Shown here: positions 1,714-53,681 of the stretch, in pieces
Layout: the number at the start of each line of letters is the position of its first letter
Numbering within the stretch: position 1 is the stretch's first letter
Assembly: GCF_033153115.1 (NCBI RefSeq)
Contig: NW_026889755.1
Location: 7,316,001-7,380,000, forward strand
Direction of reading: 5' to 3'
Length of the DNA: 64,000 nucleotides
From: Saccostrea echinata
Lineage: Eukaryota
Notes under the pieces: generated by a model
Database searches by the model: none
What the model saw: only the letters and a program-made list of their open reading frames with translations
What the model was told of the DNA's origin: nothing
Made by a program: the position numbers and the translations under genes

Positions 1714-1914
1714 TCATTTTTATTATGGAATTTTTAAACGGTGAAGGCGAGGAAGGAATAAGTAAGAGGAAGGAGTATTTCCTCTCAAATACAAAACATC
1801 TAGTTCTCACAATTCCTTGCAGGCTAATAATTCAATAGTTTTTTAGAGAGAATAAACGATTATATAACGTCAGGGAAAAAAAGGGCAGGGGACTTTTAGT
1901 AGGATCTTGGGTAG

Positions 1915-3480
1915 TGTCGTGTCGCCCTATTGGGTGACCGCACTTATCTTGGGAATTTGTCTAGCTCGCTCGCTTGTGAGAGACCCTTATTTATAATGAT
2001 TCTGCTTTTCAGCCACCAGGTCCAGATTAGGTTTGGGTGCACTGTAATAAGGAAAAGCAAAGCGTGGATCAAATTAAAAACGATGTTACTTTATTCACGT
2101 CTCCGAATAGAATGCACAACAAAAAGTCACCAGGCACAATAAAATAAATCATTATGAGTTGCTCGTAGCATTACAAACAAGTGTGCCTTAACCTACCTAA
2201 CATCTGGTGACTCATAGAGTGATTAAACAATATTAAAAGACTCACTCTATATAATAAAAAATCTAGACAATGTAATTTCCAACTGAAATACTAAAGCTCG
2301 TACTTTTGTTTACACTGGATACATTTAAATTTACCTCCCTCGACTGGAGAGTTTGATAATAATAATAGAGCCAAACAAAGAAAGGCATTATATTTCCGGT
2401 ATAAAACCGATAAAAAGTAAAACGTGTCTAACTATAAAACTACACTCTACATAGGACTACAGCTACCAAAATACAAGAAAAATCATAAGAACACACATCA
2501 AATATAAATGCCCTGATCTCAATATAATACTTTTATAATAGATTTCTATTTTAATGAAAGCTCAAATTTTGTAAACTAAAGCTCAAATTTTTGTAAACTC
2601 CAGAAATTAATTGCAAATGTTAATAAATAATTAATTAATCTTTTCTTTATAAGTTCTAGAAAAATAACTTAACCAAATAAAACATTTTTACCATACCTGT
2701 AATAAGGAAAAGCAAAGCGTGGATCAAATTAAAAACGATGTTACTTTATTCACGTCTCCGAATAGAATGGCCGAGTTGCGGCACAATTCCATTCGGAGAC
2801 CCACGCTTGCCGTGAATTATTTTGTCCAATCAAATTAGTTTTTCTTTGTTAATTTGTATCAATAATAGCCAAAATATCGTATTTTGAAAAATCACATGAC
2901 ATGAACTGACCATTACCTGAGTATTTGACCTGCCACTTAACAAGTTAATCCCCTAACAATAGGTTAATGGATTCTACTTCGTTTGATAGTGTTTTTGACA
3001 CTAGATAAAAAAGATAAAAGAACCCATAAATAAATATACAAAAAAAACACATCACCTATCTACAAATTACTGCTGTTCTCTTTTTCCAGCAAAATTACAT
3101 AATTGTATGGCTAAAGGCTTAAACAGTTTACTAATCCCTCATGCCAAATCTTCTGAGTAACACATATTATTTATTTTAGACAATTACCTGTACTTATTTT
3201 TTTCTTCAAAGACATTCCTTCTTTTTCGTCAAATAAAATACTATTACCAAATTTCTATACATATATCTGAAATTGTAACAGGAAATAAAATAAAGACTTT
3301 ACTATATAATTCCTATAAAACGAGAATACCCAAAATGTTATGTTAAAATATCCACATACATTAATCTTAACCCAAATTGAAATATTAATTGACTAAAATT
3401 CAAAGTGAAATTTTATCTTTAATCATAACTGTCCTTTCTGACATATTTCATTTTGTCAAATAAAATCTGCAACATGACTA
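1915..3480 (-). repeat. 3' LTR
   Basis: Direct repeat of 12776-14341 at a constant offset of 10861. I saw no substitutions by eye, apart from the inverted segment 3430-3480. Confidence 0.95.
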
Positions 3481-3491
3481 TTTTCCCCCTT
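3481..3491 (-). promoter_or_regulatory. Polypurine tract (AAGGGGGAAAA)
   Basis: Purine run on the element strand directly abutting the 3' LTR. Confidence 0.85.
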
Positions 3492-4029
3492 GCTACCATT
3501 GCTTTCGTCCCTGAAAGCTCAAATTTTCCTCATGGATAATGAAAAATATTTAATTTGAAAGATATCCAAGGCATCAATTACATACCCTCGACAAAAAAAT
3601 TAATACATTGTTTTTCTTCTTTTTTTGTTTTTTGTTTTATGCAATATATCACATGTTTAAAAACTACAATTAAACCTATGGATAAAAAAATATTTATATA
3701 AAAAAAAAATATATATATACATGTATATACATAAAGGCAATATTGATACCCATATATGTGTTCATTTTGAATCCCTGAGATTTTTCAATACTTTATTACT
3801 TATAAGTGGGAAAAATGAACAAACAAATATCATAGAATAGTCATCCAATATTAAAGAGTAAAAAAACCAATGAGGTCCCTGTAAAAAGAATTCATACAAT
3901 AAATGGAAAAAGGAAAAAAAATTATTGAGTTGTGCGATTCAATGCAATGTTGACAACGGAACATAGAAAAAAATTAAAACCATACAAAAGGAATTGAAAA
4001 TATTGTTAATCTTTTCTGCACTGGGTCAT

Positions 4030-6444
4030 TTAAAGGGTAACCAGCATGTTTTTGTGTGGGTTATTTAGATGGAAAGCATAATTGTTGTGTAATAAGATGA
4101 CATAGGCACTGAATGGTTGTTTTAAAATTCTTTTGAGTTTATGGTGGGTAAATGGGTTGATGGTAATGGTTGATGGAATGGTAATGGTCATGTTGGTTCG
4201 AGTGTCAGTGACTTTGAAATTTGTCCACGTAGCTAATAATTTGCATGATGGAAAAGGAGTAATTGAAATATCTGCAATTTGAGGTGTTGAAATAGTGTAA
4301 TATGAAGGACACAAGGACAATCTAGTTATAAACACCATAACACAATCACCACCTGTAGTTAATTCTAGTGCCAAAATGGATCCTTTGCATGACTTTGATT
4401 TGTACATCCAGTATAAGAGAAGTCCCAAGATGACCAGTACAACTGTACTTAAAATAACTGATGCATGAATCCAAGTAAATTCTGAAAACCAAGTTGAGCT
4501 TATGTCTGTTGGATTAGGAGTTGAAGTTTCAAGTTTTTCATAAATGAAAGAAGGGACTTTGTCAGATGTGGCATTTTGTACTTGTTGTAGAACTAAAAGT
4601 GATGTTGACAGTTTTCTGAATTTCAAGACCAACACAATACAACATCCTAAACACAGTGCTGCAATACTTAAAGCTACATATGTTAAAATGTTGGAAGTAC
4701 CTAACCAATCATCTTGAATATCAATTTTGCCATCTATTAAAGGTTCTGCCAGAGTTTTGAAAATTTTCTCATCCTTTTTGGCTGCTTTAGCAATTTTCTT
4801 TAAACTTAAATGGGCTTTTTGATCATTTACTAATATCTCATTTAAGGAATGATTATAAAATTTCAGTTCAGGAATGGACATATTTATTGGTGTAGGAAAT
4901 AAACTGTCCCCAAACACATGTTCTAATTTAGAATCATCAAAAAATTCTTGTAATAAGGCCAAATTTACAGGATGGATCACTGAAAAATTTGAAGAAGAGT
5001 TGTAACAATCCACTAATCTTGGTGCATAAAACAGAGATTGGGTTGACAATGAGCATCTACAAGGAATATGAATGATGCAAAAAGCACATCCCTTTAAAAC
5101 TTTTTGTTCCTTTGGACAATCTAAGACCAAAGTTGGTGTATTATACAACAAAACTGAGGTTGATGTGATTTCAAAAATGTTTGCTTTCAGTAAAGAAGGA
5201 ATAAATCTAAAGTCACACAATTTTTGAACTTGTTTAACATCATTTGAGTATAAAGCCATTGTACAATCAGGTTCAGTTATAGGGGTCAAGGCCCTATTGG
5301 AATTACATAGTATGGTGGGTCCATGATCACAATTAACTAAATCTTCTGCTGATAACGAGACAAAATAATCATGGTGACTTGTGATTGCAAAATAATCTGG
5401 TGTGGACAGGAGCTGTGTAGCATGCATGTCTGAGGTTACATTGGTTGAGGTAGGAACAGGTAAACTAATGACCTTGAACAATTGTAAAGGTTGTTTCTGT
5501 GTTGAGATGGGAAATTTCACAGTAATGAATAATGATGATTTATCCCTTGCATACAAAAATTTTCCATGAGAATAATAAAATGAATAATCTGTATGAATTA
5601 AATAAAAATTCTTGTATGATTTTCTAAGTTTGAAATTGATATTGGAAATGGCTCTGGTGATTAAAAATTTTGGAATTAAAAATGGAGTTATCTTTCCTTC
5701 TAATAAACTCTGGACTGCAGCTGACAGTTTATCAAACTGGGTTCTCAAAAGAGTAGCTCTGTTAACTTGTGACATTAGAATTTTTGACACATTAACAAAA
5801 GATTTTTCCAAATCATATAATTTGTTATTAAAAGCAGTTGCAATTTTTGAAATGTACTCTGAATTTTCTTTGATACCAGCAGCTAAGTTGTCCATTCTGT
5901 GATTGCTTACAGTAATGAAAGATGACAAATGAGATCCATGTTGTTGCAGTGCTTTTGCAATATTTTCTGTTTTCCTATTTAATGCATTGATGTGTCCAGC
6001 TAAAATATTGACATCATCTATAGTTGCGGTGCCAAAAATACTTTTTGAGAGTGACCCAATAAATGGAAGTAAAGCTCGGAGTTGTCTACCTTGTTTTAAA
6101 ATGTTTGTTTGAGGAACTAAAGTTTTGATTTGGCGCATGGTTTCATTGAAATGAATTAAGGTTTCTTTATGTAATCCCTGGACAAAATTTGCAAGATTGT
6201 TTAACAAAACACATCCTTGTCGAAAAGTATGAACATTGCAAAAAGGTATTCTAGATACATGAATTCTTTTTGGAAGTTTCACATGAAAGGTATGGAGCCA
6301 ATACTCCTGAGATAAAATAATGCTTGATTGTTCTTTAAAAACTACCCCATAATTGATTCTCTGTACGATTTTGTCTTCAGTTTTCTCAGGTCTAGCTTGG
6401 GCTGGAATGGTTATCACAGTCATTACTGCTAACACAAGGAACAT
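4030..6444 (-). CDS. env: Envelope glycoprotein, class I fusion (F-type, similar in layout to baculovirus F and errantivirus Env), 804 aa
   Basis: N-terminal signal peptide, RQLR furin-like site (aa 120-123) followed by the fusion-peptide-like ALLPFIGSLSKSIFG, heptad repeat region, Cys-rich ectodomain with N-glycosylation sequons and hydrophobic TM segments. Lies between pol and the 3' LTR. Confidence 0.88.
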   Translation of the reverse strand: MFLVLAVMTVITIPAQARPEKTEDKIVQRINYGVVFKEQSSIILSQEYWLHTFHVKLPKRIHVSRIPFCNVHTFRQGCVLLNNLANFVQGLHKETLIHFNETMRQIKTLVPQTNILKQGRQLRALLPFIGSLSKSIFGTATIDDVNILAGHINALNRKTENIAKALQQHGSHLSSFITVSNHRMDNLAAGIKENSEYISKIATAFNNKLYDLEKSFVNVSKILMSQVNRATLLRTQFDKLSAAVQSLLEGKITPFLIPKFLITRAISNINFKLRKSYKNFYLIHTDYSFYYSHGKFLYARDKSSLFITVKFPISTQKQPLQLFKVISLPVPTSTNVTSDMHATQLLSTPDYFAITSHHDYFVSLSAEDLVNCDHGPTILCNSNRALTPITEPDCTMALYSNDVKQVQKLCDFRFIPSLLKANIFEITSTSVLLYNTPTLVLDCPKEQKVLKGCAFCIIHIPCRCSLSTQSLFYAPRLVDCYNSSSNFSVIHPVNLALLQEFFDDSKLEHVFGDSLFPTPINMSIPELKFYNHSLNEILVNDQKAHLSLKKIAKAAKKDEKIFKTLAEPLIDGKIDIQDDWLGTSNILTYVALSIAALCLGCCIVLVLKFRKLSTSLLVLQQVQNATSDKVPSFIYEKLETSTPNPTDISSTWFSEFTWIHASVILSTVVLVILGLLLYWMYKSKSCKGSILALELTTGGDCVMVFITRLSLCPSYYTISTPQIADISITPFPSCKLLATWTNFKVTDTRTNMTITIPSTITINPFTHHKLKRILKQPFSAYVILLHNNYAFHLNNPHKNMLVTL

Positions 6445-6470
6445 GGTATTGTGGAATCCCCCAAATTTTC

Positions 6471-6497
6471 CTACAAATATATTTATAGAAAAAAAAT
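6471..6497 (-). promoter_or_regulatory. Putative splice acceptor for a subgenomic env mRNA
   Basis: Element strand reads TTTTTTTTCTATAAATATATTTGTAG|G, ending 26 nt before the env ATG. Confidence 0.55.
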
Positions 6498-6994
6498 TTA
6501 AGGTTGTGGTACATTTGTCATGAAAACAAGAACCGATCGTTATTCGTGTTTTCTAGCACTATAAAAAACTGCAGAGTTAACTACATTGATTATCTGACCA
6601 TACCACAGCAATAATTCTTTTTCTTTATTTATGTGTAAAATTTAAGGTGTTAAATGGTAAGTGAAATTTCTGAATTTTAACTAAACAAAAATGAATGGCT
6701 AGCCATTTATAAGGGGATTTTACTGTTGACCAAATGCAATAACCCATAATAACTTGCAAATACATATCTAAAACATTTAGAAATAAAAATGAGACAAATT
6801 CACTCTATTACCCTTGCTAATTTATGAGTTTTCCATTCACACTTTCTTTATCTAACTTTTCACCTCTAATCAACCTTTTTTCTTTAATAATGCAGGTGCT
6901 TTAAGCTTTGGCATTAACATACTTTATGCAGTACACAAATGTTTTGGCATAAATATTTTTCTTAATGATTTCCTTTGTTAAATGTTAGTACTTC

Positions 6995-9900
6995 TTAATA
7001 TTTTCTCTTAAAACAAGTTTTCCTAATTGTTCCTAATTTTGTGAACTTTTTGTTTATGAGTTCCATAACTTCATCATCAAAACAGTGATCAGGTTCCCAT
7101 GTTTTGGAACCATCCTCCCACTCTACTCTTATTTCTCTTCTTCCATTTTTAAATCTGCCCCTTAGAAACTTTTTAAATTTCCATTTTCTATGTGGATCAT
7201 GTATTTCTTCATCTAACAAGTCTGATTCATCTTCATTCCCTTGACCTTGGTCAATGTTTGCATCATTTGGAACAACTGTTCCTTCACCTTGATCATTACC
7301 TGTATTTGCATCTGTGTCATTTTGAGATTGACCTTGATCATTTTGTACAGTGTCATCATTCTGTCGACCTTGGGGTGGATCAACTGGATCCTGACCTTGA
7401 CCATTCTGAATCTGAATTTGTTGCTCGGGTTGCTCAAAGTTTGGTCTTTCATCTTCATCATAGTAATGTTTTAAGTTTGATGCATTCATCATTGACATGT
7501 GAAGTTTGTTGTCCGATTTTCTCTTCAGTTTATAAGTGAAGTTGGGACCAATTTCAACAATTTCATAAGGTCCCTCAGATTTATCATACAGTTTGCTAGA
7601 TAACCCCTTTGGAACCTTGTTAATTTTTATCAGTACTTGATCGCCAAGTTTGAAATCTGGGATTTTCACATTTAAGTCATGCCTAGTTTTGTTTTGCTCT
7701 TGATGCCATTTTATGTTCTCTTTAGCAATTTCGTCATGGACTTTAAGATTTTCTAGAAACTCATTGATGTAGGCTTTTGTGTCCCTACTCATGTTTTCAA
7801 GTGGTTCTAGCGCAACATCATATGGGAGGCGCATTTCTTCCCCAAACATTAAAAAGAAGGGGGAGAACTCTGTGGAATGCATTGAGGGTGCTTTTCTGTA
7901 AGCCATTAAAATACTTGCAATTAATTTTGGCCAATCATTTTGAGCTTTCCCACAATATGCCCTCAAGGATTGTGCAAGTGTACTGTTTTGTCTTTCCACT
8001 AAGCCATTTGTTTTTGGATGATAAGCTGAAGTTTGATGTTTAGTAATTTCAAAAATTTCACATAATGCCTTTACCAATTTAGACATGAAATTTGTGCCTC
8101 TGTCTGAAACAAGAACTTTTGGAGCACCAAATCGAGAGAAAATTTCTCTGAACAGTACATTTGCAGTTTCCTCTGCTGTTTGAGTTCTCATAGGGAAACC
8201 TTCCACCCATCTAGTGTATGAATCTACACAGAGTAAAATGTGTTCATGTCCCTCTTTTGTTTTGTAAAGGGGACCCAAAATATCAATGTGCCATCGATCA
8301 AATTTGTGCACCATTGGGAGAGGGTTCATTGGAGGTTTTGACGGATTGTAGTCACGTTTTGCGCGTTGACAGCGATCACAAGATTTCACGTATTCGATGA
8401 TGTCACTATGCATACGCGGCCAATAGTATTTGCGGTAGATAGCGGTCCTTACCTTTTCAATGCCTAGATGTCCTCCTCCTGCCAGACTGTCATGATAAGA
8501 CAATAATGCATCTTTTCTAAGCACTTGAGGTAATGCAATTTGCTTGATAAAGTTGAATTCTCCTTGAGGTTTACGACATCTTCTCTGAAACCAGTGATAC
8601 AACACATCCTCTACCATGCTATAATGTTTGGCTTCTGCTATCACTGCATCTCTCGTTTTGACTTCTGCTGGCAATGTTCCATCTTTAAGATATGTATAAA
8701 TATCTTGAAAATCTTGGCACTGGGATTGGAGTTGTCCAATAGTTGCTACATCCAGAGGAATTTGCTGATGTTCTTCAGGTTCATCCTCCTCCTCTATAGC
8801 TAAGGTCTCGGGTTCCTCATTTGCATATGTGAAACTTACCTCTACACAACAAGCTTCTTCTAGGGAATCCTGTTCATCCACTAATGTATCTGGAAGATTC
8901 TCTGTTTGAATACTGACTGAATTTATACTTGGCAACTTTTCTGGGTGTTCGTCTCCCTCATCTTCACTCTCTGTGTCTGAGAAATTAATATTTGAGGTTT
9001 GGCTACCCACGGATCTGACTTGGGTGTCACTTACTTCTAACTGTACTATCTCTGCTTTTTCCTCCTCCAGTGAGTTGTTCGAGTCCTTTTCTGCTGAAAT
9101 TCTGACAATACTTGTTGCTTGTCTTACCCCAGGTTGATATTCTCGTCTACTGAGAGCATCTGCTACTAAATTGCTCTTACCTGGTCTGTGTATGATTTGG
9201 AAGTTGTATTCTTGTAGCTGGAGAGCCCATCTTTCTAAACGACCAGTGTGTTTGGCTGTTTGCAGCCAAACAAGTGCTTTGTGATCAGTAATTACTGTAA
9301 ACCTACTGTGTACCAGATAAGGTCGAAATGCGGCAATGCCTTCCAGCACTGCCAAGCATTCCTTTTCGGTAGTATTGAACTTCCTCTGATCTTGACTGAG
9401 AGACTTACCTCCATAGGATACTACATATTCTCGATTATCATCATCTACTTGGCCCAACACATACCCAATGGCATTGTCAGAGGCGTCACATGTCAGTATG
9501 AAAGATCTAGATGTGTCTGGGTATGACAAAATTGGGGCAGATAATAACTTGTCTTTGAGGGTATCAAAGGCATTTTGGCAAGATTCAGACCATTGAAATT
9601 TTCTCTCTTTACATAACAAGGCATTAAGTGGGGTAGCAATTTTAGCAAAATCTTGGATAAATTTCCGATAATAGTTTGCCATACCCAGAAAACTACGTAC
9701 CTGTTTCTGTGTCTTGGGAATGGGAAACTCACTGACCGCACGGGTCTTGTCAGGGTCTACTTGTACTCCCTTACGTGATATAATGTGCCCTAAGAACTTA
9801 ACTTCTTTGACGGCAAAGTGACATTTTGATGGCTGCAGTTTCAAATTTGCCACTCTCAGACGATCAAACACTTGTTCTAAGTGTTGCAGATGTTCATCAA

Positions 9901-11365
9901 AGGATCGCGAAAAGATTAAAATATCATCCACGTAGACAAGTACCGATTTCCAATTTAACCCTCTCAGCACATTTGACATAAGTGTTTGAAATGAAATGGG
10001 GGAATTAGTAAGGCCAAATGGCATACGTTTCCACTCATACACTCCTTCTCTTGTTATGAAAGCTGCTTTCTCTCTACTTTCCTCATCCAGTTCCATTTGC
10101 CAGAATCCAGACATGAGATCTAAATTAGTAAAATAGTTTGCTCGTGCCTCACCTATAGCATCAAAAACACTTTCCAAATGGGGAAGTGGGAAGGACATGG
10201 GTACTGTAATTTTGTTTAAAGCACGATAATCACAAGCAAACCGAAATTGACCATTCTTTTTCTTTACTAAAACCACTGGCGAATGCCATTCTGAATTTGA
10301 TGGTTGTATAATACCATGATTTAACATTTCTGAAATTTGTTTTTGAATTTCTTTTGAAGCTTGAGATGATGTTCTGTAAAACTGTTGGCGAACAGGCTTT
10401 GAATTTGGTTTTATTTCAATTTTATGTTTGTAAGCACTTGTCCTTCCCAGTTCACTGAGGTCAACAGCAAAGTTACTTCGATGTTTTGCTAAAAATTTCA
10501 GTAAAACCTCTTTTTGATTTGGATCTAAATCGGAATTCTCTAAATCAAATGCAATTTCACTTGGTTTTTGACCTTTGGAATTGTCTGGATTCAACGCACT
10601 GATACTCATTGTCTCATTTTCTAAGGCATACACTTCTCGAGTTTGCACCTCACACACATTAGCTACTACAAAATTCTTTGGTAAGTACACATCCTCAAAT
10701 GTAGGATTAATCAACCTCATAACCACATCATCTCTGATACTTACCAAGCATTTAGCACCAGATAATTGTAAAGATTGCAACTCTTCATGAGGTTCTAACA
10801 GTACTTGCTCACCTAATTTTTGTCTTGAAATATGTACAGGGACATTAATTTCACACCTTTGGGGAATTTTCATAGCACATTTTACACGGGCATACCCATT
10901 GTTGATCGAAATTGAACAAACATTTGCATCACCATTGTGATCTGGAATGTGTAGTGTATTGGTCTCAGAAAACCTAAGAGTTGTGTTGTTTGCACACAAG
11001 AAATCTACTCCTAAAATGAAAGCATGGTGTAAACCATCTACCACATGAACTGAGAAGTTATAATCCTGACCATTGATATCTAACTTCATCTCTAACTTAC
11101 CTGCCACAGGTAACAATTTGCCACTAGCACCCTTAACTGATCGGAAATCAGGTGATGTCAACCTATCATGAGCATAAATAGTCTTTCTAAAGAACTCTAA
11201 ATTCATAATTGTAACAGAAGCACCAGAATCCACTAAAGCACTAGTTTTTCTTCCACCGACTTGCAGTGGAATTGTGTTCTTTGTCATGTGTGCCACTAGA
11301 TTGACTTGTGGCTGGTTGTCATGGTGCCCATCTCTAGAATGTTTTCTAAAGACAGGCGCGCACCC
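6995..11365 (-). CDS. pol: Pol polyprotein (protease, RT, RNase H, integrase, C-terminal chromodomain-like module), in frame with gag
   Basis: Motifs LVDSGAS (PR), YVDD (RT), CDAS (RNase H), H..H..CDRC, IDILGP/SDRG/VERQN (integrase DDE), GPY and VEWEDGSKTWEP. The frame is open from 11365, directly after the gag TAG. The ORF track starts it at a GTG at 11296. Confidence 0.95.
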   Translation of the reverse strand, partial: GCAPVFRKHSRDGHHDNQPQVNLVAHMTKNTIPLQVGGRKTSALVDSGASVTIMNLEFFRKTIYAHDRLTSPDFRSVKGASGKLLPVAGKLEMKLDINGQDYNFSVHVVDGLHHAFILGVDFLCANNTTLRFSETNTLHIPDHNGDANVCSISINNGYARVKCAMKIPQRCEINVPVHISRQKLGEQVLLEPHEELQSLQLSGAKCLVSIRDDVVMRLINPTFEDVYLPKNFVVANVCEVQTREVYALENETMSISALNPDNSKGQKPSEIAFDLENSDLDPNQKEVLLKFLAKHRSNFAVDLSELGRTSAYKHKIEIKPNSKPVRQQFYRTSSQASKEIQKQISEMLNHGIIQPSNSEWHSPVVLVKKKNGQFRFACDYRALNKITVPMSFPLPHLESVFDAIGEARANYFTNLDLMSGFWQMELDEESREKAAFITREGVYEWKRMPFGLTNSPISFQTLMSNVLRGLNWKSVLVYVDDILIFSRSFDEHLQHLEQVFDRLRVANLKLQPSKCHFAVKEVKFLGHIISRKGVQVDPDKTRAVSEFPIPKTQKQVRSFLGMANYYRKFIQDFAKIATPLNALLCKERKFQWSESCQNAFDTLKDKLLSAPILSYPDTSRSFILTCDASDNAIGYVLGQVDDDNREYVVSYGGKSLSQDQRKFNTTEKECLAVLEGIAAFRPYLVHSRFTVITDHKALVWLQTAKHTGRLERWALQLQEYNFQIIHRPGKSNLVADALSRREYQPGVRQATSIVRISAEKDSNNSLEEEKAEIVQLEVSDTQVRSVGSQTSNINFSDTESEDEGDEHPEKLPSINSVSIQTENLPDTLVDEQDSLEEACCVEVSFTYANEEPETLAIEEEDEPEEHQQIPLDVATIGQLQSQCQDFQDIYTYLKDGTLPAEVKTRDAVIAEAKHYSMVEDVLYHWFQRRCRKPQGEFNFIKQIALPQVLRKDALLSYHDSLAGGGHLGIEKVRTAIYRKYYWPRMHSDIIEYVKSCDRCQRAKRDYNPSKPPMNPLPMVHKFDRWHIDILGPLYKTKEGHEHILLCVDSYTRWVEGFPMRTQTAEETANVLFREIFSRFGAPKVLVSDRGTNFMSKLVKALCEIFEITKHQTSAYHPKTNGLVERQNSTLAQSLRAYCGKAQNDWPKLIASILMAYRKAPSMHSTEFSPFFLMFGEEMRLPYDVALEPLENMSRDTKAYINEFLENLKVHDEIAKENIKWHQEQNKTRHDLNVKIPDFKLGDQVLIKINKVPKGLSSKLYDKSEGPYEIVEIGPNFTYKLKRKSDNKLHMSMMNASNLKHYYDEDERPNFEQPEQQIQIQNGQGQDPVDPPQGRQNDDTVQNDQGQSQNDTDANTGNDQGEGTVVPNDANIDQGQGNEDESDLLDEEIHDPHRKWKFKKFLRGRFKNGRREIRVEWEDGSKTWEPDHCFDDEVMELINKKFTKLGTIRKTCFKRKY

Positions 11366-12751
11366 CTATTGTTTACTGTTTTGAAACGAGGAAGTGTGCT
11401 TGTGGTATTTTGAGTGTGTTACTGTGCGTGAACGTTGCTGTAAGTGCTGTGCGTAAGAAGAGCAAGTTTTCTTAAAATGACCCAATTTACCACAAAAATA
11501 ACAGCTTGACATATTAACCTTTTTAGCATTGCAATTGAAAGAATCGCATAACTCACCAGAACAGTTGTGACAGGAACCTCTCCCATTGCTTGGCCTATTC
11601 TGAGGATGTCTGGATCTGGGTCCCTGATATTGTGTCTCCTGTCTAGCCTGCCGTTGGGAATGCTGATAGCCACCATTTCCCTGTTGAAAGCGGTTTCCAC
11701 CATTTCCCTGTTGAAAGCGGTTTCCACCATTTCCTTGTTGGTAAGGCCTACGGGGTCCACCATTATTCCTCCATGGCTGGGACTCTCTCGGTGGGGCCTG
11801 CTGAGAAAATTGGGCATCGTTCACTGACTCCTGTATGGCGTTTATGTCAGTCCTCACTTCCTGTAGAGCATTCAGCAAGGCTAAATTGGTTGAGTCCTGC
11901 ACTGATGAGGTTTTCTGTCTGATTTTGTTGGCAAGTTCGGCTCGGCATGCACAGTTCCTCAGTTGTTCTAAAGAATGAGGGTCATCCTTTACCACATCCG
12001 CACTTATGTCTGGCTTCAGTCCATTAATTATGACTGTAATTAGCCAGTCCTGGTCTACACTTCGGTCATTGGTCATACTAGTCACTCGGTGTATAAAGTC
12101 CTCTACACTTTCTTGGTCCTTTTGTTTAACATCCATCAGTTGTAAATTATGTCTTGAGGACGGCTGGAATCGATTATGTAAGGCCCTGCGAATAGACTCT
12201 AGTGACGATTTTACCGTGCGGTCCAAAGCGTAGAACCAGCTTTCGGCAGCCCCTTCCAGATAAAAGGGGAGGGTGTTGATGGCGACTTCCTCTGTGAGCT
12301 TTTGGAGGTTAATAAAGGTTATGAACTTGTACCACCATTGTACCACAGACACCTTCCCATTGAATTTTTCAAGTCTAACTTTGGGAAAAGATGAGCTTCC
12401 CTGAGAGTTGGTTGTATAATTCCTGTTGGTTAAAGAAGAGGGTGGATCAAAAGTGAGTGGGATTGGGGGTTGTCTGGTTGACACTTCCCTCAACTGTCTC
12501 CTTAGGGATTCAATTTCTTCTTCTTTTTCGTCTAACTCTCGGTTTCTGCGGTCTTGGAGACGTTGTATCTCCTCCTGTTGACTTCGTAACTCTCTCTGTA
12601 ACGAACTCACTTCTTCCTGGTTGTAATCTTCCTCGATGGTGTCGGAGTTCTCCGGTGCTGAAGCATTAGATGGAGCAGGCATTTTGCTGTACTTTCTTAA
12701 GTTATATCGGTGAAAGGCTGTATTTTCTTTCAACTCCACAATATGGTTCAT
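11366..12751 (-). CDS. gag: Gag (coiled coil, capsid, Q/G/N-rich repeats, zinc knuckle)
   Basis: 461-aa ORF just after the PBS. LEKFNG...WW capsid start, QKDQESVEDF major-homology-like motif and CYFCGKLGHFKKTC CCHC knuckle. The ATG at 12682 (MPAPS) has the better Kozak context. Confidence 0.93.
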   Translation of the reverse strand: MNHIVELKENTAFHRYNLRKYSKMPAPSNASAPENSDTIEEDYNQEEVSSLQRELRSQQEEIQRLQDRRNRELDEKEEEIESLRRQLREVSTRQPPIPLTFDPPSSLTNRNYTTNSQGSSSFPKVRLEKFNGKVSVVQWWYKFITFINLQKLTEEVAINTLPFYLEGAAESWFYALDRTVKSSLESIRRALHNRFQPSSRHNLQLMDVKQKDQESVEDFIHRVTSMTNDRSVDQDWLITVIINGLKPDISADVVKDDPHSLEQLRNCACRAELANKIRQKTSSVQDSTNLALLNALQEVRTDINAIQESVNDAQFSQQAPPRESQPWRNNGGPRRPYQQGNGGNRFQQGNGGNRFQQGNGGYQHSQRQARQETQYQGPRSRHPQNRPSNGRGSCHNCSGELCDSFNCNAKKVNMSSCYFCGKLGHFKKTCSSYAQHLQQRSRTVTHSKYHKHTSSFQNSKQ

Positions 12752-12759
12752 CCGGGTTT

Positions 12760-12773
12760 CGGATTCTCCACCA
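12760..12773 (-). promoter_or_regulatory. Primer-binding site, tRNA-Ala-like (TGGTGGAGAATCCG)
   Basis: Starts 2 nt inside the 5' LTR boundary and is complementary to a ...TTCTCCACCA tRNA 3' end, as found in tRNA-Ala. Confidence 0.8.
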
Positions 12774-12775
12774 GT

Positions 12776-14341
12776 TGTCGTGTCGCCCTATTGGGTGACC
12801 GCACTTATCTTGGGAATTTGTCTAGCTCGCTCGCTTGTGAGAGACCCTTATTTATAATGATTCTGCTTTTCAGCCACCAGGTCCAGATTAGGTTTGGGTG
12901 CACTGTAATAAGGAAAAGCAAAGCGTGGATCAAATTAAAAACGATGTTACTTTATTCACGTCTCCGAATAGAATGCACAACAAAAAGTCACCAGGCACAA
13001 TAAAATAAATCATTATGAGTTGCTCGTAGCATTACAAACAAGTGTGCCTTAACCTACCTAACATCTGGTGACTCATAGAGTGATTAAACAATATTAAAAG
13101 ACTCACTCTATATAATAAAAAATCTAGACAATGTAATTTCCAACTGAAATACTAAAGCTCGTACTTTTGTTTACACTGGATACATTTAAATTTACCTCCC
13201 TCGACTGGAGAGTTTGATAATAATAATAGAGCCAAACAAAGAAAGGCATTATATTTCCGGTATAAAACCGATAAAAAGTAAAACGTGTCTAACTATAAAA
13301 CTACACTCTACATAGGACTACAGCTACCAAAATACAAGAAAAATCATAAGAACACACATCAAATATAAATGCCCTGATCTCAATATAATACTTTTATAAT
13401 AGATTTCTATTTTAATGAAAGCTCAAATTTTGTAAACTAAAGCTCAAATTTTTGTAAACTCCAGAAATTAATTGCAAATGTTAATAAATAATTAATTAAT
13501 CTTTTCTTTATAAGTTCTAGAAAAATAACTTAACCAAATAAAACATTTTTACCATACCTGTAATAAGGAAAAGCAAAGCGTGGATCAAATTAAAAACGAT
13601 GTTACTTTATTCACGTCTCCGAATAGAATGGCCGAGTTGCGGCACAATTCCATTCGGAGACCCACGCTTGCCGTGAATTATTTTGTCCAATCAAATTAGT
13701 TTTTCTTTGTTAATTTGTATCAATAATAGCCAAAATATCGTATTTTGAAAAATCACATGACATGAACTGACCATTACCTGAGTATTTGACCTGCCACTTA
13801 ACAAGTTAATCCCCTAACAATAGGTTAATGGATTCTACTTCGTTTGATAGTGTTTTTGACACTAGATAAAAAAGATAAAAGAACCCATAAATAAATATAC
13901 AAAAAAAACACATCACCTATCTACAAATTACTGCTGTTCTCTTTTTCCAGCAAAATTACATAATTGTATGGCTAAAGGCTTAAACAGTTTACTAATCCCT
14001 CATGCCAAATCTTCTGAGTAACACATATTATTTATTTTAGACAATTACCTGTACTTATTTTTTTCTTCAAAGACATTCCTTCTTTTTCGTCAAATAAAAT
14101 ACTATTACCAAATTTCTATACATATATCTGAAATTGTAACAGGAAATAAAATAAAGACTTTACTATATAATTCCTATAAAACGAGAATACCCAAAATGTT
14201 ATGTTAAAATATCCACATACATTAATCTTAACCCAAATTGAAATATTAATTGACTAAAATTCAAAGTGAAATTTTATCTTTAATCATAACTAGTCATGTT
14301 GCAGATTTTATTTGACAAAATGAAATATGTCAGAAAGGACA
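12776..14341 (-). repeat. 5' LTR
   Basis: TGTC...GACA termini. Contains a CCAAT box, an Inr-like CCATTCT (about 13625-13631), and AATAAA in both copies of a 73-bp internal repeat (12903-12975 and 13558-13630). Confidence 0.95.
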
Positions 14342-15973
14342 GTAGCATTAATTGGTATATGCATTTACACCGAAATACTAATGAAAAAAAAACATAATAC
14401 AAGGCATTTTTCCTCTACGTAAAACAGCTGATCTTATAGGCAAGGACGTAATTTCAGTGCAGGAAGGGGAGGGGGCACAACTTATGCAAAGAAAATCCCT
14501 TGACAAGTAAAAAAAAAGGTCACATGCGTCATTTTTGAGGAAGCAATATTGAATAATATATGCTGGCAATTTATTGGGGACACACACCCCAACCAATGTT
14601 TTTACAGATCTTACATTAGCCATTATAATAAGGCACATATAAAAAAAATCACAAAACAGGCACTTTCCTTAGGGTAAAAAGAAACACTAAAAGATATTGC
14701 TGGATATTTCACTGTAGGCAAAAAATTCTATTATCTTTCTAGTATAAATACATATACCAAAAATGTTACACAAGACCCTACTAAAAGTTTAATTTTTCTT
14801 TTGTGACCCCCCCCCCCCCCACAGACTTCCTCGCCTTCACAGTTTTATTATTGTGATTGCTACGCACGCTAACTCGAGAATTTTGCTTACGTTTCACATC
14901 CATTGAATTCAATATAAATGATAATTTGGACATTAAAACTTGTTTGAATGCAAAGAAAAACTCATTAGTAACGGACTAAAAATTTAAAAAAATAACAGTG
15001 TCAAAAAGTAATTTGCTCTTATTTTCAACTCCTTTCATAAGGGGGTAGAAAATTTTATCAATTGAAATCAAGCTTTAAAACATTACCAGATTTTCAAATA
15101 TTCACGGAAATAGATAGATGAATCTCAAGTCTCTCAGTATGTTTAACTAATGCAAAATTGAACATATTGAGGAGGGGATGGTAAAATTGTTATTTCTTAA
15201 AGTTATATTCACAAGGGGACTATCATTGGAAATCGAATGCAGAAAATTTCCGAAAAAGGCATACTGTCAAGTCCTTCAGAATATAACAGAAAAGTCAGTA
15301 ATTCTTATGCTTCTTTTTATTCATAATAGAAAGATAAGTGCAATTGTCCAGCGTCATTCACCAAAGGAGCCAAATGAATGTGGTTCAAACTTCGTTATGT
15401 TGAACTCGATGAGACGGAGAAAAAAACAGAGAGATATCCTAGAGTTCAAGATATTGAGGGTAAAATACTTAAGGAAAAAGTGTTTTGGACTTCAACATCA
15501 TTTTGACATATCTATATCGAAATATCCGTGTTCGAGATAAGGAAGTTCAACTGTATTTTCATAACAAATTGTTGGATCTGCAAGTAGGTATCTAATTATA
15601 GTTCATTAAGATAATAACCAAATGACGAAGATCTCCACTAATATAACAAAATGTAAAGAAAAGTGAGATGACATAATTTTAAGATTTGCATTACAAATTT
15701 GAATCATGTTCCTTTGTTATTTTCTTTCTACAAGAACTAGGGTATACATATATACTTAATAATATTATATTTATGATCGATTTTGGCTAATCATAGTTTA
15801 ATCTCTGAGATGCATTCAGGAAATGTAACCATTTACGCACACAGAAGGCGACGGACTACGATGTTTACCATGCACTGATCATGTGATTTATTATAACACG
15901 TAAAGTAATAAGGAACTTCTTAAATGCATTTTCCTTAAATTGCAAACATCTATACGTACAGTGACATAATGAA

Positions 15974-16182: not shown

Positions 16183-16362
16183 ACCGTCACGGTAGCTCAG
16201 TCGGTAGAGCGCTCGCTTCGTGATTGAAAGGTCGTGTGTTCGAATCACGGCCGCGTCTGACCTAAAAAAATAGGTAGCAACTGTTCCTTCGCCAAGCGCA
16301 CGGCACTTTGGAGTGAAAGTTGTGGGTCTTTCGGATGAGACCTTAAGAACCGAGGCATCGCA
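16183..16362 (+). mobile_element. tRNA-derived SINE, 3' truncated
   Basis: Box A TAGCTCAGTCGG, box B TGTTCGAATC, then GGTAGCAACTGTTCCTTCGCCAAGCG and TCGGATGAGACC...AACCGAGG core. No tail. Confidence 0.7.
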
Positions 16363-16860: not shown

Positions 16861-16999
16861 TAGATCAATTCATCAGCTTTTCGAAAGAAATATAAAATAA
16901 TGCTGTCTATTACTAAAATCTAAATCCAGAATTTTGTTTTATGCATATTTTTTCAAAGTGTTAAGTGTATCCATGGTAAAAAATGTTGATATACACTCA

Positions 17000-17133
17000 T
17001 AACGCACTTTGAAAAAATTTTTCAAAGTGCGTTGATTTTGTCCCAGATTTAACGCACTTTGAAAAATCTTTTCAAAGTGCGTTATTTTTGTCCCAATTTT
17101 AACGCACTTTGAAAAAAAATTTTCAAAGTGCGG
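17000..17133. repeat. Tandem array of about 50-bp units, each holding a palindrome
   Basis: About three copies of AACGCACTTTGAAAA...TTTTCAAAGTGCGTT joined by near-identical linkers. Confidence 0.85.
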
Positions 17134-17534
17134 AATTTTTTCATAGTGCGTTGCCACAAAGCATATCGCCAGAAACGATAATAGCAAGAGTTGTCTCTAC
17201 TTTGTTTTGTATCTATGACAGAAATACCCACTACTATTTTCGCAGACAAAAATGTAAGACTGTTTAGTCAGTGAAGATTTTCATAGTAAATGACAGATAG
17301 AGACTTTATTTGCCAACAACATTGACTTGCATTGTCCCTGTTGGCTAGGGCGACAATATAAACCCAAACAAAATGTCACAATATTTTCCAAGCTAATTAG
17401 GCGGTAGGAACGAGTGGTTAATATGCATATTTATCAAACGTTTGGGAACTATCATCATTTGCCAGTTCGATTATTCTGAAAAAAATAATACCTTTACCAG
17501 AACAAGAATTGAATACTTTATCTGTATTATCATT

Positions 17535-51413: not shown

Positions 51414-52481
51414 TTATCTTCTTAAAATGTTATTACAACAAAATTGTCTAAGTTTATTTCTGAATTTGATGTCAAAAAACCAGTAAACATACGGATTAGC
51501 AATGTGATTCAGAAGATTAAAACGGAGACAAAAAACGTAAATATTCTTTATGTATCCTTTCTTTTCTTCTGTGCTTGCAAAGTTGTAAATGTGTGTTATG
51601 AGTGACGTCAGATACGAAACTACGTAGACAATAATGATGACGAGATACATGACACTAATATTCCTTCTGACTTGTTGTGTAAGACTTCTGGCACTCCTCA
51701 AGGTGTTATTGGATTCGTCATTATTCTGTTGTGAATGTTTCCTTTTCGTATTTTCTCCAATGGTAAACAATTCTATTGACGCGATATTAATGTTGTCTTC
51801 GGGATCATTATATGCCCGATGTCTTCTGGCAGATGAAAATCTTTCATAAATGGTTTTAATCACAGGAATGTAAAGTACTGATATAATTAAAATGTTAATA
51901 AAGCAAAGAAATAGCAAAACCCCTAAGTATGGTAATATAACACTATTAGAACTGTAAGTGCCGTCGTCGGTACGGCAGACAGAGAGATCACCAGTGGCAT
52001 TAAATGATCTGAGTTTATATATTCCATTGAATTTCAAAATTGGAGATGCATAGCCGGCACAAATTACAAATATAATCAGGATTGCAATTCTGCACACTTT
52101 TTGGGACATCTGTTTACCGAACGGACGGCAGATCTTCAAATATCTTTGAAACGCTATTGCAAGGATAATAAGAGCCGAAAATCCTCCGGTGAATATGATT
52201 AAAAAATGCAACGTTTTGCAAAGAAGGGCACTAGGGTAAATGTAGCGCATGGTGTTATCCAAATGATGCTGAGTAACATTTGACACAGTTCCGACAAGAT
52301 CAATAACAGCAAGAACTGGTATGAAATACCGGGATCCCGATTTGTCCTGCACGTATTTTGTGTACATAAAAAAAGCAAGAGCGTTTCCGAAAATCCCAAA
52401 GGCACCTGCAATTAGTTGTACTATTGTGTTTGGCATTAGTTGTTCCGAATATTCTTCGGATAACATCTGTGTATCGACCAT
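51414..52481 (-). CDS. Class A GPCR, intronless, 355 aa; more divergent paralogue
   Basis: GN, LAVID, FQRY and NPYVY motifs; seven hydrophobic segments. Confidence 0.92.
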   Translation of the reverse strand: MVDTQMLSEEYSEQLMPNTIVQLIAGAFGIFGNALAFFMYTKYVQDKSGSRYFIPVLAVIDLVGTVSNVTQHHLDNTMRYIYPSALLCKTLHFLIIFTGGFSALIILAIAFQRYLKICRPFGKQMSQKVCRIAILIIFVICAGYASPILKFNGIYKLRSFNATGDLSVCRTDDGTYSSNSVILPYLGVLLFLCFINILIISVLYIPVIKTIYERFSSARRHRAYNDPEDNINIASIELFTIGENTKRKHSQQNNDESNNTLRSARSLTQQVRRNISVMYLVIIIVYVVSYLTSLITHIYNFASTEEKKGYIKNIYVFCLRFNLLNHIANPYVYWFFDIKFRNKLRQFCCNNILRR

Positions 52482-53681
52482 ATTTAAATTTTAGTAAAGA
52501 AAAAAAAAAGTCACTGGTTTTCTCCACCTATAACTGATTCGTTTAAATTGAAATATTACTAGTTAAATATGACTATTGTCATTTAAATAAAGTTTGTTTC
52601 CTGTAAAATAAATTCTGAGTGGGTTTTTTTATCTATTTTAACAGGGAAGGAAATGCGTTATGAGACTTTATGTCTGAAGTGCTAGGTTCACTTGAGTCAT
52701 AAAATGGGCCATTCCCTGTACCAATGAATTGGTCAAGGCCCTATGTCTCATTTCAAACACCAATATAAAGAAGAGATGTAGCTGTGCTTTCATTTTCTAT
52801 AGCAAAGTTTCCTCTGAGAGTTCAGGTTTTAAATGAACGCTTGGTAAAATTGTGATGTTCTTGACATTTGCAGAGAATGGGTGCTTTTGAGTACCTTCAT
52901 GAAAGAATTAAAATACGATCCCACCACTTGATCCCAAAAATGGTAATAATGTTTTATAATCTTCTAAAGACGTTCTTTCGATATATAAGTACATATTTTG
53001 GATCAGAGGTTGGGGTCTTTACAAATTAATGGAAAAAAACGTTTAACTTTCAGGCATTTTTGAAGAAATTTTCAGGGTTTGGGAGTAATGGTGCAATTCA
53101 TGACGTCATAAAACATGGTCTTGAGAGAAAATAACGCCATTTTCAGTAGATATGCAGTCACCAAAGGCCCAAATTCTTTTCAAATAAAACTGAGCTGTTT
53201 TAATTTTTCAGAAATTCACAGGGCCAAAAAAGGCCTTAAGTGAATCTTGTTCTTTGTAATATTACACAAACAAAGAATTTACGTAGTTAACAGGTCAAAA
53301 AATACGAAGCAGAGAATATAAATTATTACTATTCAATTTTGTCAATGAATGTTAAAATTCTTGTAAAAATTATCATCATACAAATAGAAATCCCCAAAGA
53401 TCAGGTTGAATAATAAATAAAAATTTCGATATTTTTCTTTTAGTTCTTTCAAAATTATTATGAAAATCAATTGCTGGGTCACAGTAAGCTTTTATAAAGC
53501 AATAAACCATTACATTTATTTAAAAATATTAAAGGTCGACTCCCTTTGACAGATATTCAAAAAGATGTCAGGGCTCAAGGCCGTACACAAAGTGTAGAGT
53601 CATTTTGCCCAAAAGTTTGTGCTCTGCTTCAACTTACTAATGGAAAAAAGGTACCTAGAACTTAGGAACTTGAAAGCTCTA

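Follow-up and report, generated by a model that had tools for sequence, protein, structure and literature searches.

The foamy virus LTR contains a splice donor, and U1 binding controls the choice between its 5' and 3' poly(A) sites (PMC3694450). There a single poly(A) signal follows the donor, RNA structure acts as the switch, and the available text describes no LTR acceptor or duplicated exon, unlike the LTRs analysed here. In split-intron retroviral vectors (Ismail et al. 2000, as presented in PMC3182074), an intron is built when reverse transcription transfers a splice site from one LTR to the other; according to the accessible part of that source they are engineered, one-way and self-inactivating, whereas the element described below is natural and would restore its layout in every cycle. 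Penelope-like elements keep a spliceosomal intron just after the start site, and its loss lowers expression, but they are not LTR/integrase elements, and no retention mechanism based on a duplicated exon is given in the consulted sections of PMC2377424. An HTLV-1 LTR-derived segment in vectors is spliced from a donor and an acceptor within it; in the portion of 10.1101/2023.01.28.526022 available to us this is a hybrid vector promoter with no exon duplication and no rebuilding. Ty3/gypsy elements with an F-type env occur in Mollusca (the "ancient errantiviruses" of Chary and Hayashi, PMC13524379) and share the gag-pol-env order, the F-type fusogen, the primer-binding site (PBS) and the LTRs with our element; the string "splic" is absent from the main text as available, which describes neither a duplicated exon nor an inverted left end, and the family studied here may be listed in the supplements. 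The word "intron" is also absent from the available text of PMC6238403. Neither a duplicated-exon LTR intron nor an inverted LTR left end was found in the literature searched, outside which lie subscription papers, Repbase notes and supplements.

An env-bearing Ty3/gypsy element in the window

The window is a stretch of 64,000 nucleotides from Saccostrea echinata. To judge from its sequence, it contains an intact-looking, env-bearing Ty3/gypsy element (Table 1). The order of gag followed by pol as PR-RT-RH-IN, the PBS after the 5' LTR, the polypurine tract before the 3' LTR and the 4-bp target duplication (4-6 bp expected) are those of Ty3/gypsy elements (Metaviridae). The LTRs are not direct repeats throughout, in that their first ~55 bp are inverted, which is a departure in end structure and not in RT lineage. 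The two LTRs are identical over 1516 bp and the family is therefore young; about 25 near-full matches of the LTR are present in the genome. The nearest named Pol relatives come from bivalves (72% and 64% over RT-RH). The top Atlas matches of the env product are Baculo_F clusters (0.91-0.94), and Pfam and PDB sequence searches with it returned no significant match. An env ORF with an F-type or gB-type fusogen is the operational definition of an errantivirus in the available text of PMC13524379, and the element has such an ORF. Membership of Troyka was rejected, the ends here being TG..CA with a 4-bp duplication versus CG..CG with a 3-bp duplication in the accessible text of PMC12440569, and a second RNase H in pol was rejected as Pfam finds one.

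Within gag, a 27-bp tandem repeat at 11670-11750 codes for a Gly/Gln/Asn-rich stretch, and an acceptor-like pyrimidine tract with CAG lies at 3880-3900, in the 3' untranslated region before the polypurine tract. In most copies (L003, L004, L007, L010, L011, L018, L027 and L045 examined) the PBS is missing 8 nt when set against what appears to be the tRNA end. It has been rewritten in different ways in the window copy and in L045, which suggests bulged primer pairing.

Table 1. Positions in the window of the element and of its parts, in element order
Feature	Positions	Strand	Remarks
Left 4-bp target-site duplication CTAC	14342..14345	-	same as 1911-1914
Element span	14341-1915	-	flanked by CTAC target-site duplication
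Flipped left end, reverse complement of X	14291..14341	-	TGTCC start; 4 nt shorter than full X at the junction
5' LTR, U3 remainder	13631..14290	-	holds reversed CCAAT box 13687-13691
5' LTR, copy 1 (E1), predicted first exon	13558..13630	-	Inr at start; AATAAA 13611-13606; donor CAG|GTATGG
5' LTR, predicted 655-nt GT..AG intron	12903..13557	-	last 73 nt are copy 2; putatively spliced
5' LTR, copy 2 (E2)	12903..12975	-	branch-like TTAAT/TTGAT, pyrimidine tract, acceptor CAG
5' LTR, U5	12776..12902	-	terminal CGACA
Primer-binding site TGGTGGAGAATCCG	12760..12773	-	preceded by AC spacer; presumably complementary to tRNA-Ala
gag ORF	11366..12787	-	473 aa, stop to stop
Splice donor within gag for env mRNA, CTG|GTGAGT	11551..11559	-	one contig
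pol ORF, PR-RT-RH-IN	6995..11365	-	1456 aa; D-D-E visible
env ORF, F-type fusogen	4030..6552	-	840 codons; acceptor AG 6472-6471; own ATG 6444
Polypurine tract	3485..3494	-	before 3' LTR
Segment X, first part of 3' LTR	3430..3484	-	55 nt, AAAAT..GGACA, quasi-palindrome
3' LTR, U3 remainder	2770..3429	-	
3' LTR, copy 1	2697..2769	-	donor adjoins its end
3' LTR, spacer, predicted retained intron body	2115..2696	-	
3' LTR, copy 2	2042..2114	-	AATAAA 2095-2090; RNA 3' end predicted inside
3' LTR, U5	1915..2041	-	terminal CGACA
Right 4-bp target-site duplication CTAC	1911..1914	-	pairs with 14342-14345

A twice-stored putative first exon and a candidate rebuilt intron

Each LTR of the window element holds two copies of a 73-bp segment with a spacing of 655, and all four copies are identical; a perfect repeat of this length is far beyond chance. 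The initial annotation had described this duplication as an exon bounded by splice signals, and the layout is exactly as described there. On the minus strand, copy 1 starts with CATTCT after GGC (Inr-like CCATTC, with the A at 13629), carries AATAAA at copy positions 20-25 and ends at the donor-like CAG|GTATGG, while copy 2 ends at the acceptor-like CTTTGCTTTTCCTTATTACAG|TGCACC. Deletion of 13557-12903 leaves one copy joined to U5, as had been claimed. The CCAAT box reported upstream of copy 1 is present at -61, but it is reversed on the element strand (ATTGG; plus-strand position 13687).

We consider it probable, on comparative evidence from sequence, that the LTR is spliced at the 5' end of the RNA and that the intron is rebuilt in each cycle. 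Transcription would start at copy 1, and the cap-proximal donor would join copy 1 to U5 at the RNA 5' end. In the 3' LTR the donor, 48 nt downstream of the copy 1 poly(A) signal, would likely restrain that signal; the RNA would be cleaved within copy 2, ahead of the acceptor, which would thereby be lost while the spacer stays. Minus strong-stop DNA, consisting of U5 and the spliced exon, would then jump to copy 2 at the 3' end, restoring the order U3-copy1-spacer-copy2-U5 and overwriting copy 2 with copy 1 every time. Spacer-less LTRs would result if the strong-stop DNA jumped to copy 1 instead, or if the RNA 3' end were spliced. The sequence offers nothing to explain why the same donor and acceptor would act at the 5' LTR and not at the 3' LTR.

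An RT search yielded 41 related elements, 31 of them in the clade, meaning that they fall in a well-supported clade or are joined to it by LTR similarity, and 10 in an outgroup with 46-50% RT identity. The tree omits C25b (no RT) and C8_92 (short match). Among the 27 in-clade elements that remain when four loci with no LTR pair (C76_55, C18_71, C5_83 and C8_92) are omitted, 20 have an internal LTR duplication of 44-84 bp, two (C44_56 and C29_57) are exact spacer-less derivatives in both LTRs, and five lack the duplication, which is found in 0 of the 10 outgroup elements. The layout spans four deep lineages of the tree and is the same in related families despite different sequences. The duplications comprise 15 repeat types, which are not independent and represent 4-5 lineages, with copy-to-copy spacings from 231 to 1520 nt. 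Searches of viral contigs found no relatives of the element. Metagenome contigs gave eight relative loci; of the three examined, only L242 extends to the polypurine tract and X, and none has a full LTR. One locus, L133-L135 (G000:C1:19572400-19600400), consists of two full elements in tandem with the middle LTR common to both.

The comparative test proposed in the initial annotation was whether the repeat ends of relatives match a donor and an acceptor, and they do so in all 15 types. Copy 1 runs into AG|GT and copy 2 has a final AG in 15/15, with the repeat end placed at AG after inspection of the sequences; for background, AG|GTV occurs at 18 of 11418 positions in the spacers. Identity between the copies stops exactly at AG in nine types and extends 2-4 nt into the common GT in six. 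The signals of a U2 intron (GT donor, pyrimidine tract and AG acceptor) are present throughout, with a pyrimidine share of 0.59-0.94 and a branch-like motif in 7/15. AATAAA lies within the repeat in 12 types and only just before copy 2 in two; copy 1 of C22_67 has a variant of it. The position just before copy 2 is characteristic of a TATA-box lineage (L148-L149, L178-L179, L144-L145 and L152-L153), so that the spacer-less LTR of C29_57 has no poly(A) signal there; env is absent in some members of this lineage and present in C33_57. The occurrence of a cap-derived G before copy 2 (5/15 types) was too weak and was set aside.

The two copies also change together, as the same test predicted: within an LTR their identity is 95-100%, against a median of 51% from one type to another. 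Four LTRs of the window family (L019, L020, L024 and L026) have a private change common to both copies, L016 and L018 have a change in one copy only, and the remaining 17 of 23 LTRs are invariant in the copies. Four diagnostic sites in the C63 family change as a set: C63_58 is A/A, C30_57 is B/B, and C40_57 has a third state, C/C, in both copies; C5_58 is a B/A hybrid with a mosaic spacer. Replacement of a block bordered by the start site and the splice junction is what the transfer of spliced strong-stop DNA would predict. We infer that the flow is from copy 1 to copy 2, against which stand the mosaic spacer of C5_58 and the one-copy changes in L016 and L018. C16_58 and C61_58 have lost the spacer exactly in their 5' LTR alone, and the same exact loss is seen in a 3' LTR (L234) and in L029 and L036. 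Such spacer-less LTRs are predicted by a jump to copy 1 and would arise equally by recombination between the copies.

RNA data were available as assembled contigs of four runs guessed to be RNA. In these contigs spliced copy1-U5 is indistinguishable from genomic copy2-U5 owing to the duplication, and the lack of a listed 13558/12902 joint speaks neither for nor against splicing. One contig of run X2 contains a gag-to-env splice with canonical GT..AG ends, in frame, joining about 11556-11557 to 6469-6470, evidence that the family gives rise to spliced transcripts in that run. This is the sole splice observed and it uses the gag donor, not the LTR donor. The gag donor lies late in gag, in the zinc-finger region, and since it is in frame with env a Gag-Env fusion is predicted, besides the product of env's own ATG. 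In two runs, contigs span U3-copy1-spacer with no splice, as expected of the predicted RNA 3' end but also of DNA or read-through. Coverage of the spacer by contigs is likewise what would be seen if transcription started at copy 1 and the genome RNA stayed unspliced, with copy1-spacer-copy2 acting as one long R, as in HTLV or foamy viruses, and with the splice serving a minor mRNA only. We regard this as unlikely: a long R leaves no way for copy 2 to follow copy 1 within limits set by the start site and the splice junction, and there is no triplicated LTR among the LTRs read.

The position of the start site bears on a further alternative, in which transcription starts at copy 2 as an ordinary R, and copy 1 is an old duplication, homogenised by gene conversion or template slips, whose donor does no more than keep the upstream poly(A) signal silent. 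The junctions of many truncated left ends fall at copy 2 or shortly before it, as a start at copy 2 would also lead one to expect, and copy 2 and U5 are contiguous in the DNA, making splicing unnecessary. Against it, an Inr-like hexamer is found at the copy 1 start in 14/15 types and is complete at copy 1 only in eight. A reversed CCAAT box lies at -47 to -64 upstream of copy 1 in eight types and TATAAA at about -30 in two; CCAAT or TATA motifs thus precede copy 1 in 10/15 types and copy 2 in 0/15. Gene conversion would not halt at Inr and AG in every family, and the conserved acceptor would be left unexplained. A start at copy 2 is accordingly very improbable in our estimation.

Inverted left ends and X-X palindromes

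Canonical retroviral integration is two-ended, with TG..CA ends and 3' processing. The window element has a DDE integrase, a 4-bp target duplication and TG..CA outer ends in common with this scheme, but its left end is an inverted 55-nt piece at a variable junction and not the cDNA's own start, and its LTR starts differ. Read as its reverse complement, 14341-14291 of the 5' LTR matches most of the 3' LTR segment 3484-3430, here called X, a feature absent from the initial annotation.

The inverted X is enclosed by the target duplication in 7/7 two-LTR or tandem elements and in 11/11 solo or truncated copies with both ends matched. X joins U3 bluntly in L003, L019 and L028; elsewhere the X junction is accompanied by deletions of a few to about 1400 bp, by fusion to an X that was retained, either together with the polypurine tract or lacking it (L005, L016, L029 and L040), or by about 845 bp of filler (L046/L045). 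The 5' LTR of L018 has foreign DNA at its left end and no X in the 4 kb examined. In the latter two loci, foreign LTR-like DNA stands in place of the 5' LTR or ahead of it, stopping just short of the PBS or U3 (L046:9787 to L045:631; L018:1-1500), and is possibly another family's strong-stop DNA. Head-to-head X-X palindromes of ~100 bp were read at 11 loci, with an exact 4-bp duplication in nine and 3 of 4 positions in two, and L094 is a single X with a target duplication. The distant C9/C63 lineage, with a different X, has blunt flips and truncations too, and its C9 family has six X-X palindromes, three with exact duplications. No opposite-strand X pairs occur among 17/17 matches of a non-flipping family, and no U5-U5 palindrome was found in 40 scored of 74 candidates. 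In the tandem array L042-L043 (G000:C25:8954536-8968188), units of LTR, PBS and gag with a 3024-bp period share one target duplication, with the flipped X first.

Opposite-strand joints of X to the copy 2 start are present in two public runs, so the flip is not an assembly error. An assembly artefact is further contradicted by the unique flanks, and the other dismissive reading, that a separate miniature DNA transposon accounts for the X-X palindromes, as their ~100-bp MITE-like hairpins and TG..CA ends might suggest, conflicts with each palindrome matching the LTR start of its own family (in two families), having the element's 4-bp duplication and a different centre; both are highly improbable. 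MITE membership, which would imply copies of one master with a common centre, moved by a DNA transposase, was rejected because the centre varies from locus to locus and the arms correspond to the LTR start of whichever family they match.

We lean towards a hairpin model, which we infer from the structure of X and of its joints, in which integrase treats an X hairpin as the left end of the element and the product is sealed by host end-joining. The displaced start of the plus strand would fold as the X hairpin, presenting an att end; integrase would cut X after CA and join the hairpin to the target; repair would copy the hairpin open, and end-joining would link X to the left end of the long DNA, whatever its form. 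An X-X palindrome would arise from two X hairpins. X folds end-to-end in 6/7 families (including L242, a separate metagenome record) compared to 15/249 control windows, the exception being C25b, whose best fold is not end-to-end. The z-scores range from -1.2 to -3.5, the weakest being that of the window family (z -1.2, no better than shuffles). When X of C9 or of C63 is folded, its final CA is base-paired and 4 nt protrude as a 5' overhang, which resembles an att end. At the X position of some relatives that do not flip there is a shorter hairpin (TATCA..TGATA), a possible precursor of the X hairpin.

The weak hairpin of the window family speaks for a flip with no hairpin, which we think possible but doubtful. 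Here integrase would nick a duplex, inward-pointing att site 55 bp inside the finished cDNA end, or RT would invert X by fold-back template switching before integration. The nick, which predicts the same products, is the main rival of the hairpin model. Quasi-palindromes invite template switches, and X is a quasi-palindrome; template switching alone, however, gives no X-X pairs with target duplications, no filler DNA and no blunt joins. In the loci read the flipped X never has the polypurine tract on its own side and is never longer than 55 nt, which argues that no cut is made at the internal X in the 3' LTR, and end-to-end pairing is kept across very different X sequences. Both observations favour the hairpin model. 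Snap-back hairpin transfer of the minus strand was rejected, as its predicted junction was not seen.

On balance we narrowly favour the combined view that this clade rewrote both ends of the LTR cycle. An intron would be kept by storing the first exon twice and rebuilt at first-strand transfer, and in a subclade the left att end would be a 55-nt single-stranded hairpin cut off the plus strand, so that each insertion would pass through a double-strand break inside the element and shed ~100-bp palindromic mini-insertions throughout the genome of the host. The clade appears to break two expectations, namely that retroelements lose introns and that their LTRs are identical. If the rebuilt intron is true, an element borne by cDNA gains a spliced 5' end, and a spliced 5' end likely aids export, poly(A) choice and escape from the silencing of intronless RNA. 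The flipped left end, likely an undescribed integration route, implies an integrase substrate and a host-repair step that were not found described in the literature searched. It would also explain ~100-bp palindromes that annotation would likely label MITEs, and LTR finders requiring TG..CA direct repeats would likely mis-cut these elements.

Other features of the window

Three single-exon ORFs of rhodopsin-family GPCRs lie at 18693-19805, 37534-38631 and 51414-52490, and the resemblance of 1-839 to 18796-19601 suggests a fourth GPCR copy at the window edge. An ORF on the plus strand (44954-45664) has a weak tyrosine-recombinase match (E 0.007) and is possibly a DIRS- or Crypton-like fragment. 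ARAGORN makes tRNA-like calls at 1415-1505 and 16186-16258, probably tRNA-derived repeats. At 16999-17149 there is a 50-bp tandem repeat with self-complementary units, and a similar motif is present in L244.
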